38,700 nucleotides of DNA, taken from the IMG/VR virus record IMGVR_UViG_3300033515_000012, positions 1-38,700 of that record. One strand, written 5' to 3'. The notes under the pieces are model-generated. The model saw only the letters and a list, made by a program, of their open reading frames with translations. It had not been told where the DNA came from and searched no databases. Source of the DNA: a virus. Lineage: Duplodnaviria > Caudoviricetes. This document shows positions 7,784 to 15,920 of the stretch, piece after piece. Numbering within the stretch: position 1 is the stretch's first letter; each line of letters opens with the position of its first letter. The position numbers and the translations under genes are program-made.

Positions 7784-7879
7784 AAAAATGTGAGCTACTT
7801 AGACATAGTATGACTACCTCTTTATTTCACTCACACTCAACTAACTAACTATCTATTACACATTATGAAAGTATAATAG
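7784..7879 (-). ncRNA. Candidate antisense sRNA against early-gene start regions
   Basis: 9-bp stem (one G-U) with loop UUUCAUAAU, then AUAGUUAGUUAGUUG, then UGUGAG...CUCACA stem and U5. Confidence 0.5.
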
Positions 7880-7880
7880 T

Positions 7881-7963
7881 TGTGAAGATGGGATTTGAAC
7901 CCTACATTTTTAACTTTGGAAGTTAATGTCTTACCGCTGGATTCACACCTTAGACGACTTCAC
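7881..7963 (-). tRNA. Degenerate tRNA-Trp(CCA) with enlarged D-loop
   Basis: Acceptor GTGAAG/CTTCAC, D stem GTCT/AGAC, anticodon arm TTAAC-TTCCAAA-GTTAA, T-loop GGGTTCAAATCCC; imperfect T stem. Confidence 0.6.
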
Positions 7964-8040
7964 GTGATGTTTTAAAGCTATGGGTTCTCTTCCCACTCAG
8001 ACAAATGAGTTTTCTAAATAGTCAATAAAACAAAGCGATA

Positions 8041-8102
8041 AATTAGTGATAGGAATCAAACCTATCAAATCAGAATAGCTTTACATTTAAGCTTAACTAA
8101 TT
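8041..8102 (-). ncRNA. tRNA-like element lacking an anticodon arm
   Basis: AATTAGT/ACTAATT acceptor, AGCTT/AAGCT D-like arm, GATAGG-TTTGATT-CCTATC T-like arm, only ~10 nt between D and T arms. Confidence 0.55.
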
Positions 8103-8172
8103 TATCTATTTGTAAGCGATGCTCAGTATTACCTTTCTCTTCTTACTACACTATTGAAGGTTGTGTTTCCTA

Positions 8173-8667
8173 TTATTTTATAAAATAATCAATTAAATAT
8201 AGTTTTGGTGCAAGTAATATATATAATAAATTATATGAATTAATACTAATTTGAGTAATTGAAACTAATGATCCAATACTAAATATCACCCATGCAGTAT
8301 ATATACCATTCTCTGGATATTCATTTATTGAATATCTTTTAAAAAATTTATTAGAATATTTACCTTGTGATTCTGTTTTATTCATCCATATATAAGGAAT
8401 ATATCTACCTAATAAAAATATAACTATTCCCAATAATATTCCTAAAATAGATTTTGAAATATTCCAATTATAAAACTCTTGTAATAATAATGGAGATTGT
8501 TCAATAACAAATTCTCCTGTTTTTTCAGCAACAATTAATGCTTTTTTTATAACTTTAGACAATACTTCATCTGTTTTTTGAAATTTATCTACCGATATAG
8601 AATCTTTAACTTGTGCATTTATATTTATTGAAAATGCTAAAATGAATAATAATAATAATTTTTTCAT
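8173..8667 (-). CDS. Putative membrane protein with signal peptide
   Basis: MKKLLLLFILAFSININAQ signal peptide; two further hydrophobic segments. Confidence 0.8.
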   Translation of the reverse strand: MKKLLLLFILAFSININAQVKDSISVDKFQKTDEVLSKVIKKALIVAEKTGEFVIEQSPLLLQEFYNWNISKSILGILLGIVIFLLGRYIPYIWMNKTESQGKYSNKFFKRYSINEYPENGIYTAWVIFSIGSLVSITQISINSYNLLYILLAPKLYLIDYFIK

Positions 8668-9078
8668 ATTTATTTAATTTAATAGTTAGTTAATCAACGA
8701 TAGGGAGAACTGGGAAAGAATCATTTCACATCCAGTTCTCGATAATATCGTCGCTACAATAGATAATTAAGCCTCTATATAAAGCTGAAACGAGTCATTG
8801 GGACTTAATACGTACAATTACCAAATACGTCGTTTATAAGTTAAATTTAGAAAAAGAGATTGTATATTTATTTATTATCTAACTAGAACAAAATGTAATA
8901 TACAACCTCAATTAAACATTAATTCAGTGGCGAGTTCTGAAATACTTTTATATTAATTCAATTCTGGAATTGTACTGCTTGAAATTATAAATAAATTTAT
9001 AAAAACTTCAGACTATGACCAACCATGATTAATATAATTATATGTGACCATTTTACTTAATATTTAATTTTTTCTAAA

Positions 9079-11393: not shown

Positions 11394-11721
11394 TTTCTAA
11401 AGATTTTAAGATTTGCATACCAATATGTTGACTTTCAACATTTTTAATTTTGGTAACTTCTGTCCATGATTTATTAGATTCATATCTAAAATCATTTAAT
11501 ACAAAGTTCCAATAAAGGTTCCATAAATAACTAAAATATGGTTGTGTTAAATAACCTAATTTATTGTATCTGTTTTTAACTCTAGCAAATTCATCTTGTT
11601 GTACAAGACGTAAATGTTTAAATATTTCTTGTGATTCAATAGCTTTAATCATTGACATCACTTTAGTTCCTTTATATCCAGCTTTTTCAAGTTGAGATAT
11701 AGATGATTGTTGTTTTTTCAT
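11386..11721 (-). CDS. Hypothetical protein
   Basis: 111 aa ORF with TAACTAAC...ACATTATG leader. Confidence 0.75.
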   Translation of the reverse strand: MKKQQSSISQLEKAGYKGTKVMSMIKAIESQEIFKHLRLVQQDEFARVKNRYNKLGYLTQPYFSYLWNLYWNFVLNDFRYESNKSWTEVTKIKNVESQHIGMQILKSLENE

Positions 11722-11741
11722 AATGTTTTTTGTTAGTTAAT

Positions 11742-11990
11742 CTACCATTCTATATTTGGATCTACACAAGATTTACCATTAATAAATAATTCTATACTAA
11801 TAGAAGTGTTTTTTATTAATATACTATCTATTGATTGTGGTACATCAGAAGATTCTTCTAAATCATCTTCTGTAATTGTTTTTGTTGCTTTATCAATTAA
11901 GTCATCTTTAGCAATTAATAATCCATAATAACATGTTTCTAAAATATCAAGTTTTTGTTTTGATAATTTTGTTAAATCTAAATTTTTCAT
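11742..11990 (-). CDS. Hypothetical acidic protein
   Basis: 82 aa ORF with TAACTAAC leader. Confidence 0.7.
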   Translation of the reverse strand: MKNLDLTKLSKQKLDILETCYYGLLIAKDDLIDKATKTITEDDLEESSDVPQSIDSILIKNTSISIELFINGKSCVDPNIEW

Positions 11991-12320
11991 AATATTTAAT
12001 TGTTAGTTAATAATTTTTTAATAGTTAATAATAAAAAAAATGTTGAAGCTTCACATACTAGAGATAAATCCTACTTCAACTGGTAACATTGAGCTGTTAC
12101 AGGGAAACTCACGATGCTTATCTTCATCTAGTTTCACGTTATTATCCTAGTGATAAGTTCAAATAACCGTTATTTTAAAAAACAACACTATAGTTTGTCA
12201 ATCTACATTTCCCCAATTATAAGTTTTATACTTATGTGCTGACGACCAAGTAAGACACTGCTTATAATTGTTATCCACGTGGATAGGGTGCTAGACATTT
12301 GCACTAAATGTTGTTTTAAG

Positions 12321-12835: not shown

Positions 12836-12984
12836 ATAGTTTTGTTGTTTAAGGTACAACAAAATAAACCTATTTTAGCACCCTCTTTCTTATATCAGTT
12901 CTATATACACTTAAAAGCCTATGTGATGTACTATAAGAGTAGGGTCATGTAGTTCATAAGAGGCTTTACAAACGCACATTAAAC

Positions 12985-13408
12985 TATTTTGTTACGTTAT
13001 TAAACTACTTGCTGAAAACTCATTTGTGTTGTAGTACGGCGACTTTTTAAAATTCATCACTTGATACTCTCTATGTTTTCACCTATTCCTTTCTCAAGGG
13101 AACAACACATCTACCATCTCTGATAGTATCTTTATGTAAATTACGGATATATATCCTTTAAACTGTGTCTATCACAAGAATAATTTACAAAGGTATTCAA
13201 TGTTTAACCTGTTTTAATATGCAGACTATAATACATATTTTATTATAAAACAACATATCCTTCAAGATAGGGATATATATACTTTCATGCACAAGTAAAT
13301 TAGCTTGCAACAATCCATCACCTACATATCGGTGCATTGGGGTACTATATCATACTCAACAAACATAACACCTCTTGATAGTGTTTAGAATCGTCACGTT
13401 ACAAAATA
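12985..13408 (-). ncRNA. Large multi-helix structured RNA, family unknown
   Basis: 12/13-bp closing stem plus many nested helices; no long ORF. Confidence 0.65.
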
Positions 13409-13932: not shown

Positions 13933-14238
13933 TTATATTACTAAATATTTCTTTTTAGGTTTACCTGTTTTTTCAGATATACCTGTAATAATGTAATATT
14001 TTCCTTTATTGTTTTGATAAACATCAAATACTTTACCTTCTTCTGAAGTGTAAGTTTTATTTGTTTTAACATCAACTTTTTCGTGAAAATTACCTTGAGA
14101 ATCAACTGTTGTGTTTGGAACTTTTGGTTTCTCTTGTTTTACAACATTTGTGTTAATTGTTGGTAATTTCACATTTACTGTTTGAGCTGTAGCTGTTAAT
14201 GACATAATTAACATTGCTAAAAATAGAACTTTTTTCAT
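13933..14238 (-). CDS. Putative secreted protein
   Basis: Signal peptide MKKVLFLAMLIMSLTATA-Q. Confidence 0.8.
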   Translation of the reverse strand: MKKVLFLAMLIMSLTATAQTVNVKLPTINTNVVKQEKPKVPNTTVDSQGNFHEKVDVKTNKTYTSEEGKVFDVYQNNKGKYYIITGISEKTGKPKKKYLVI

Positions 14239-14250
14239 TTTTAATTTGGT

Positions 14251-14284
14251 TTTTAATTGTTTTTAATTGTTTTTAATTGTTTTT
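14251..14284. repeat. 10-bp tandem repeat (TTTTAATTGT)x3
   Basis: Directly visible, immediately upstream of 13933..14238. Confidence 0.85.
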
Positions 14285-14286
14285 AT

Positions 14287-15018
14287 TTATAAATTTTGTT
14301 CAATCCATTTATTCATTGTAGGTGTAGATAATATCTTATCACTACTTGTTTTTAAAATACTCGGTACATCTTCATTAAAATTATTTAATAATTCAATAAC
14401 TTCTTCTCTATCCCAACTATCTTTAATTGATTTAATTGTAATAGTATTGTCAGAATTTACTTTTAAGTTAGTAAAAAAATCTGTTTCACATTTAGGTTCA
14501 TTTGGCATTTTATTATCTTGACACCCCCATATATATTCTGTTTTCCCACAAATAATACATTTAGATATACAAGTATATTCAACTAATACATCACTAATAA
14601 CATTTCCTTTGTTATATTTTTCAATGTATTCTTCAATAAATTGTTTTGATGGTTGAGGTAATGAATTAGCTCCACCAACACCATTTCTATAATAAGCATC
14701 AATTTCAGATTCTATTTTTAATGAAGAATCTGTAGAAGCCAAAACTTTATATCCTTCATTATTAATATTAGGATAATCAATTAAATCTTGTTTAGTTACT
14801 TGATGTATCCATTTTTTATTAATAGGTTTTACATGAAATTTAATATAATTGCTTTCTTTTATTTCATCATCTGAAATAATGTATAAATTTTGAGGTTTAC
14901 AATAGGAAGTATATTCTAAATTATTACCAAAACATAATCCATTATCACCTATAAATCCAATATTACTTGTATTTTTTGTTGGTAATATTATTACCTTTGC
15001 TTTTTTAAATTGTTTCAT
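14287..15018 (-). CDS. Hypothetical phage protein, paralog of 1..400
   Basis: ILPT...QNLYIISDDEIKE...KVLASTD...QFIEEY parallels the partial ORF at the window start. Confidence 0.8.
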   Translation of the reverse strand: MKQFKKAKVIILPTKNTSNIGFIGDNGLCFGNNLEYTSYCKPQNLYIISDDEIKESNYIKFHVKPINKKWIHQVTKQDLIDYPNINNEGYKVLASTDSSLKIESEIDAYYRNGVGGANSLPQPSKQFIEEYIEKYNKGNVISDVLVEYTCISKCIICGKTEYIWGCQDNKMPNEPKCETDFFTNLKVNSDNTITIKSIKDSWDREEVIELLNNFNEDVPSILKTSSDKILSTPTMNKWIEQNL

Positions 15019-15143
15019 AATATTATAGTTTAGTTAGTTAGTTAATAATTTGTTTTAAAAATAAACTCTACAAGGTTGCACCTTGCTATAGCTCCTATTA
15101 AATGAGATTAATGATTAGCCTGCAATTGGATAGAGTTTTAAAA

Positions 15144-15552: not shown

Positions 15553-15783
15553 TTATTCATCTACAGGATTTAAATATACTGTATTTTCATTAGTAGTTAA
15601 TTGTAATTGTCTAATACCATCTTGTGGTATATCTGATTCTAAACCTTCCCATTTAAATTGAATAGAATTATCAGATTTGTTTTGTTTATTTTCAAGTTTA
15701 TTATATCCACGATATAATTGAATATTTAATATTACTGAAAATATTAATATTATAGTTAATATTAATTGAAATGTTGATTTCAT
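15553..15783 (-). CDS. Membrane-anchored hypothetical protein
   Basis: N-terminal hydrophobic helix; TAACTAACTAAC...ACATTATG leader. Confidence 0.75.
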   Translation of the reverse strand: MKSTFQLILTIILIFSVILNIQLYRGYNKLENKQNKSDNSIQFKWEGLESDIPQDGIRQLQLTTNENTVYLNPVDE

Positions 15784-15801
15784 AATGTAAAAATGTGTTA
15801 G

Positions 15802-15891
15802 TTAGTTAATGTTCCAAATAATGTAATATAATAATGAGAATATTACAAATGTAAATAAATAATACATACCTATTGACGCTTGTCTTTTCAT
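15802..15891 (-). CDS. Very small hydrophobic peptide (29 aa)
   Basis: MKRQASIGMYYLFTFVIFSLLYYIIWNIN; same conserved leader as neighbours. Confidence 0.55.
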   Translation of the reverse strand: MKRQASIGMYYLFTFVIFSLLYYIIWNIN

Positions 15892-15920
15892 AATGTTGTA
15901 AAATTAGTTAGTTAATGTTG

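Follow-up and report, generated by a model that had tools for sequence, protein, structure and literature searches.

A conserved structured RNA behind a tRNA-like gene in phi14:2-like crAss-like phages, with predicted pairing to upstream gene starts

The window analysed here is a 38.7-kb, AT-rich virus record. On its minus strand, behind a tRNA-Trp-like gene, lies a unit of about 96 nucleotides composed of a hairpin (P1), an open tail and a second hairpin (P3) that ends in a U tract. Comparative evidence from related sequences identifies this unit as a real, conserved structured-RNA family of phi14:2-like Crassvirales. The antisense-regulon idea of the original prediction is backed comparatively in one part, namely that a minus-strand structured RNA behind a tRNA is directed at the phage's own upstream leaders. 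That it is released by tRNA processing and represses the phage's own immediate-early genes is a further step, which we consider rather probable. The literature, searched to the exclusion of the supplements of structured-RNA catalogues, yielded no description of the unit, which is apparently undescribed so far.

The plus strand of the window carries the GroEL, terminase, portal and capsid genes, and the minus strand carries small ORFs, DNA polymerase, RNA ligase, a tmRNA and tRNA-Glu. The window phage is a crAss-like, phi14:2-like phage: its capsid protein shares 62.5% identity with the one of Cellulophaga phage phi14:2, which belongs to Crassvirales. We infer a flavobacterium as its host. In the account published for phi14:2, the virion polymerase transcribes the replicative arm, which is early, the early transcripts are described as having no common promoter motif, and abundant intergenic RNAs without known function are reported (bioRxiv 10.1101/2020.03.07.982082). 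By analogy with this replicative arm, the minus arm of the window is taken as early. Pfam gave no family above cut-off for 13 early-arm window proteins, promoter scans remained at chance level, and a nucleotide search of cultured phages returned only short chance matches. Long non-coding stretches of higher GC content surround the tmRNA and tRNA-Glu (12060-12320 and 12840-13400, minus strand) and have no Rfam match, and tandem AAAACAATTA repeats occupy the leader of the gene at 14238 (13933-14290, minus strand).

Table 1. Elements of the RNA unit, its neighbourhood and the predicted target leaders (window coordinates; cofolding energies in kcal/mol).
Feature	Position	Strand	Details
Hairpin P1	7853..7879	-	9-bp stem 7879-7871/7861-7853 with one G-U pair; 9-nt anti-start-codon loop UUUCAUAAU at 7870-7862
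Single-stranded tail AUAGUUAGUUAGUU (UAGUUAGUU)	7839..7852	-	complement of leader tag AACUAAC; predicted toehold
Hairpin P3 and U tract	7784..7838	-	hairpin 7838-7786, U5 to 7784; terminator-like 3' end
tRNA-like scaffold	7880..7964	-	acceptor 7963-7958/7887-7882; enlarged D loop; anticodon CCA 7919-7917; 3' end abuts P1
Second conserved non-coding motif, upstream	7966..8025	-	small hairpin and GGG-AWGAGAA-CCC; 13 sequences, 3 consensus pairs, 0 compensatory
76-aa gene at 15783, leader and start	15777..15807	-	11+11 nt match; cofold -16.8; predicted target
243-aa gene at 15018, leader and start	15012..15043	-	9+13 nt match; cofold -19.3; predicted target
29-codon ORF at 15891, leader and start	15885..15914	-	11+10 nt match; cofold -18.9; predicted target
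82-aa gene at 11990, leader and start	11984..12009	-	9+8 nt match; cofold -11.7; predicted target
111-aa gene at 11721, leader and start	11715..11739	-	11+8 nt match; cofold -11.2; predicted target
164-aa gene at 8667, leader	8661..8692	-	7+11 nt match; cofold -14.5, tail pairing only; predicted target

Structure and conservation of the unit

The stem, loop, tail, hairpin and U5 proposed for the minus strand at 7784..7879 are all present at those positions, including the one G-U pair in the 9-bp stem, and the scaffold ends at 7880, immediately beside the first base of P1 at 7879, so that the proposed location directly 3' of the tRNA-Trp-like gene also holds. The preference for this strand is borne out by folding: the minus-strand fold reaches -26.8 kcal/mol (z -3.7, with 0 of 200 shuffles as good) versus -10.9 (z -1.0) for the plus strand. 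P3 contains a conserved GAA (7828-7826) opposite AGUA (7799-7796), an internal motif which we take to resemble a bulged-G motif, and a variable apical insert. AACTAACTAAC occurs a single time on the plus strand of the window, at 7839, in agreement with the claim of one inverted motif copy, and the number of inverted copies of this kind expected from base composition is about 1e-5. Hairpins of at least 7 bp with a UCAUA loop form at 4 of 105 sites in the window; such a hairpin alone is thus not rare, and the case for the unit rests on conservation. No covariance model of Rfam 15, C4 included, matched positions 7784-7879, and the whole window searched at E up to 1 gave only tRNA, tmRNA and one chance match.

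Pattern scans of viral and metagenome contigs gave 38 candidate hairpins, of which L263, L268 and L272 were discarded as chance matches, leaving 35 distinct copies. In one scan 17 of 27 matches proved to be ordinary leaders on the opposite strand, and a loose T-loop-plus-loop scan gave mostly unrelated sequence among the at least 120 listed of about 1600 stretches. A model built from 24 copies and searched against 45 chosen loci recovered 38 matches, 37 of them distinct. Across these 37 copies 97.7% of cells are paired and 14 of 17 pairs show compensatory changes, versus at most 51% of cells paired in slid controls of the alignment; because the alignment was fitted to the model, these pairing counts lean towards it. 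Two-sided changes were found at all eight modelled pairs of P1 and compensatory changes at six of nine pairs of P3. The P1 loop measures 8-11 nt (9 nt in 21/35) and is invariant while the stems co-vary; the exceptions, L175, L203 and L468 (G078), are natural variants with an intact P3 and no CAU loop. The tRNA that precedes the unit in L203 is tRNA-Met(CAU). When the loop was left free in the scan it was present in 9 of 23 matches, and when the tail was left free it was present in 15 of 21 hairpin-bearing matches.

Within the alignment, G-U cells outnumber A-C cells by 52 to 3, which fixes the strand as minus. The original prediction had itself raised the alternative of a plus-strand transcript leading an MKV mini-ORF, and the plus strand at the unit does read like an ordinary leader (ATG AAA GTA TAA TAG). 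However, the mini-peptide ranges from 3 to 29 codons across copies with nothing conserved beyond MK, the G-U bias and the U tract both point to the minus strand, and the P1 loop is invariant on co-varying stems. That the plus strand is the functional one, or that the unit is a neutral inverted relic of a leader, we find hardly credible.

Each of the 10 genome records with a strong match carries one copy, flanked by the block of small ORFs and the DNA polymerase gene. Among 185,579 prokaryote genomes there were 11 pattern matches, of which one 104-kb contig alone fits the model. This contig (L345) comes from an alphaproteobacterial metagenome bin, has the same model coordinates and score as virus record G002 (78.9 bits) and is probably a mis-binned phage. 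No unit copy was found in phi14:2, where the best match (E 0.48) is a leader read backwards. The tRNA-trailer pattern was present in 2 of 121 Bacteroidota genomes, the control likewise in 2, and is therefore not a host feature in the genomes searched. P3 is swapped for a plain terminator in G076, G080, G081, L007, L012 and L016, so its core role is probably to form the 3' end. In four copies (L006, L022, L265 and L279) P3 is enlarged by about 75 nt that include a separate T-loop-like hairpin, and P3 of L111, L246 and G084 carries another conserved insert.

The tRNA-Trp-like gene was missed by default ARAGORN and called only at relaxed threshold; its Rfam score of 26.4 bits falls short of the gathering score, 29. 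In 28 of 32 copies 20-24 nt separate the T-loop from the first base of P1, which places the start of P1 at the CCA position, and the unit starts where a tRNA 3' trailer would start. With the threshold relaxed, ARAGORN called a neighbouring tRNA in 20 of 39 sequences; nine identities are represented, besides some calls that could not be assigned. L299, which among the relatives is closest to the window, has kept the scaffold with a different anticodon. This variety of identities, with about half of the genes uncalled, is as expected of a processing scaffold, and the tRNA-like gene looks like a handle for processing. The exceptions are L007, L012 and L016, smaller phage records (one complete at 35 kb) in which the hairpin, tail and plain terminator stand with no tRNA. 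Farther upstream, the intergenic DNA at 7966-8175 (minus strand), together with L285, L280, L254, L266 and L468, contains further conserved blocks: a GGAA-CA-AACC block, GAGCATCGC and the GGG-AWGAGAA-CCC hairpin. A partial tRNA-like fold lies at 8040-8110 (z -3.3), and the blocks are possibly parts of one long non-coding RNA.

The position of P1 behind a tRNA, the RNA ligase encoded in the window and the YUCAUAA that the P1 loop shares with Met anticodon loops (L124, L203) would also suit a decoy, in which P1 would imitate the anticodon loop (CAU) of tRNA-Met and so titrate a host anticodon nuclease or some other protein that binds RNA. A mimic of this kind should present a 7-nt loop on a 5-bp stem, yet the loops are 8-11 nt long in 35 of 35 copies and the P1 stems are AU-rich and variable. 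A decoy also fails to account for the tail and its spacing or for the leader tag that accompanies the unit, and the jumbo-phage trailers described below keep the sequence without the hairpin. We regard this explanation as very improbable.

Leader tags and predicted targets

The leader tag complementary to the unit reads AACUAA...UUAUG; it contains UAA and can overlap an upstream stop codon, as in the leader at 15783. The five leaders originally proposed to be complementary to loop and tail (15783, 15018, 15891, 11990 and 11721) match as described, and a sixth, at 8667, had been overlooked. When nine carriers were each scored with their own copy, the best-matching starts in most cases shared the strand of the unit and lay 1-12 kb upstream of it.

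For a comparison across genomes, the upstream block was defined independently of the unit as the genes on the early strand that lie no more than 14 kb from the start of GroEL, with ORFs from a crude caller (first ATG, 45 aa or more). In 10 carriers, duplexes of -14 kcal/mol or better were predicted for 30 of 159 upstream-block leaders versus 7 of 934 other genes. The tag, AACTAA followed by TT-ATG, was present in 53 of 159 block leaders of these carriers versus 4 of 88 in five non-carrier or decayed genomes (genome-level p 0.0013). The data had already been seen when the tag was defined and the cut-off (-14) and the extent of the block (14 kb) were set. The set of five comprised G077, G078, G082, G083 and phi14:2; G076, which is incomplete, and G081 were left out.

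These relatives derive from 80 capsid-selected records, of which 30 were searched and eight new long ones read fully or nearly so. Among the eight, G076, G080 and G084 carry the unit, G081 has it with a variant tail, and G078 is decayed, keeping scaffold, hairpin and P3 with the CAU loop absent; no unit was found in G077, G082 or G083, all read fully or nearly so. In the TerL tree (in which the G004 row is a fragment and was ignored, and G007 is missing), G078 and G077 are nested among carriers. G082 and G083 are likewise nested in that tree but fall outside on long branches in the GroEL tree, which was built without G002 and G080, so the independent losses may be only two. Individual genomes depart from the overall pattern: carrier G001 lacks a significant excess in the upstream block (p 0.19), non-carrier G082 shows one (p 0.006), and G008 has strong sites at 0 of 20 leaders. 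Cross-matching of tails against genomes gave no clear own-genome preference, the variant tail of G081 ranking its own leaders second of 17. Covariation of unit and leaders across related phages had been suggested as a check: the tag is rare in relatives without the unit, and genome-specific co-adaptation within the family was not seen.

The same antisense RNA could instead be aimed mainly at host mRNAs for membrane proteins, possible receptors among them, with the phage leaders merely using a strong host-type initiation signal. The exact two-part tag is present in 50 of 61 Aquimarina-family genomes, at 0-8 copies each. Sampled host-type starts reached -14 or better in 3/169 and 2/198 cases (1-2%), scored over 200 kb from each of two stand-in genomes that may not represent the true host; the best-scoring starts in one sample were those of OmpA, a sodium:solute symporter, MscS and a TonB-dependent receptor. 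There is also a precedent in FopS, which represses SusC-like transporters by start pairing (PMC11697453). However, tag density is far higher in the phage block than in host-type genomes, and host targeting leaves unexplained the concentration of the tag in one phage block, its rarity where the unit is absent and the changed tag found with a changed trailer. We therefore judge a mainly host-directed role rather unlikely.

Proposed mechanism and comparison with known antisense systems

In the mechanism that we favour, repression of the phage's own early leaders, the early operon would be transcribed through the scaffold, by analogy with the early replicative arm of phi14:2. A host tRNA 3' nuclease would then cut behind the scaffold, leaving P1 at the 5' end of an RNA of about 96 nt whose 3' end is formed or protected by P3 and the U tract. 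The open tail would bind AACUAAC about 10-25 nt before the AUG, P1 would open, and the loop would pair over AUUAUGAAA, masking the A-rich initiation region on which Bacteroidota ribosomes rely in place of a Shine-Dalgarno sequence. Ribosome loading would be blocked on what are probably immediate-early mRNAs. From its place at the far end of the block, the RNA would build up later than the early proteins and so confine their synthesis to a pulse. Some host mRNAs may be hit too, a side effect that we find plausible.

Cofolding of the unit with the five originally named leaders, in a pseudoknot-free model, has the tail pairing with the tag, P1 opening and the loop pairing over the AUG, with a gain of 11-19 kcal/mol. 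In this model binding starts at the tail and P1 unfolds, so the loop probably does not act on its own by kissing. In Flavobacterium, adenines at -3, -6, -12 and -13 tune initiation (PMC6847099). The predicted duplex covers these positions, which makes translational repression of the tagged leaders the likely outcome. An alternative is that the pairing is real and leads to mRNA cutting or turnover, by nuclease guidance or by cis fold-back within a long early transcript, rather than to a steric block by a free RNA. The unit and its targets do share one strand and possibly one transcript, and the predicted duplexes span 25-30 nt. On the other hand, bulges interrupt these duplexes, and a single copy facing five or more targets favours an abundant free RNA; cutting as the main outcome seems to us distinctly unlikely.

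The unit has the general hallmark of a trans-acting antisense sRNA, a conserved seed complementary to the initiation regions of co-occurring targets, and it lies outside each known family tested. The original prediction knew of no described equivalent. This was too strong, because the unit would work like FopS/GibS, the csRNAs and P1 C4, though it belongs to none of those families. FopS/GibS RNAs of Bacteroides, which pair across start codons and block translation (PMC11697453, PMC7366714), are the closest known mechanism, and those of Bacteroides thetaiotaomicron come from the same phylum. FopS-10 is reported to pair next to the start codon and block translation, with compensatory rescue (PMC11697453). 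As is proposed for the unit, FopS directs a U-rich seed against several mRNA start regions, the FopS consensus UUUCAUA is present in both, and both have a 3' terminator hairpin (PMC11697453). The FopS seed, as described, is single-stranded at the 5' end and followed by a terminator only, whereas the anti-AUG of the unit sits in the loop of a covarying hairpin and is joined by a separate tail. FopS RNAs are multicopy, encoded on Bacteroidaceae chromosomes and driven by their own promoters, whereas the unit is a single-copy, phage-borne tRNA trailer whose best matches are the phage's own genes. One phage also carries a FopS sequence.

The closest phage logic is that of C4 from phages P1 and P7, which is cut from a precursor by a tRNA-processing enzyme and pairs with its target through two separate segments, one of them over the ribosome site (PMC5320573), an arrangement that is predicted for the unit as well. 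C4 itself is a three-stem RNase P substrate cut at its 5' end, unlike the two stems and tail found here 3' of a separate tRNA-like element, and it controls immunity genes (PMC5320573), whereas the tag of the unit is spread over a whole gene block. The csRNAs of Streptococcus pneumoniae combine anti-RBS and anti-AUG sequences and share the anti-AUG seed; they are described as chromosomal, CiaR-driven and anti-Shine-Dalgarno, and no tRNA link is part of that description (PMC4507080). In origin the closest counterpart is Escherichia coli 3'ETS-leuZ, a functional base-pairing RNA from a tRNA 3' trailer, which is reported to sponge the sRNAs RyhB and RybB and not to target mRNA starts (PMC10455298). 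The tag, finally, resembles the Start Associated Sequences of Cluster K mycobacteriophages, which are repeated, oriented tags before the starts of non-structural genes; their authors left open whether RNA or protein binds them, noted K1 phages with one inverted copy and, in contrast to what is proposed here, described no antisense partner (PMC3203893). We considered the inverted copy of phage Angelica as an analogue of the tRNA trailer and rejected it; in the 15.6 kb examined it lies within gene 92 and is therefore intragenic.

Related trailers in other phages

The scan with a free tail also identified tRNA trailers in unrelated phages that have the same anti-AUG sequence and a terminator and no P1. 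Three of these are jumbo-phage trailers (L559, L585 and L523, from G219, G220 and G221, respectively) that lack the first hairpin and have a different tail. In two jumbo phages this different tail matches a different leader tag: their 401 and 317 kb contain 7 and 6 matches, none farther than about 10 kb from the trailer and one in each case being the trailer itself. Since nearby leaders supplied the tag pattern, only the lack of matches elsewhere serves as a test. The jumbo tag did not occur in two crAss-like carriers, and in the third jumbo record, G221, it was found only in the trailer copy. Across 32 trailers, 11 ranked their own locus in the top 4 and 21 did not favour it.

We put forward tentatively, as possible rather than probable, a more general timing circuit: unrelated Bacteroidota phages would tag their immediate-early mRNAs, and one antisense copy of the tag, behind an interchangeable tRNA-shaped handle at the end of the block, would end the early phase. 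If so, host tRNA maturation would release the RNA that closes this phase, a lineage that changed its tag would change its trailer as well, and many 'degenerate' phage tRNAs would serve to release an RNA and not to decode, giving odd phage tRNAs a non-decoding reason to exist. For the way in which crAss-like phages end their early phase, the unit is a concrete candidate, an RNA switch of a whole gene block in a host that does without Shine-Dalgarno sequences. The arrangement, if true, could also serve as a template for RNAs that knock down several targets at once in Bacteroidota.

Three further recurring trailer types begin with TTCATAAT behind tRNAs (L532, L551, L573, L588 and L598; L520, L546, L586 and L590; L549, L580 and L602), and most show no preference for their own nearby leaders.
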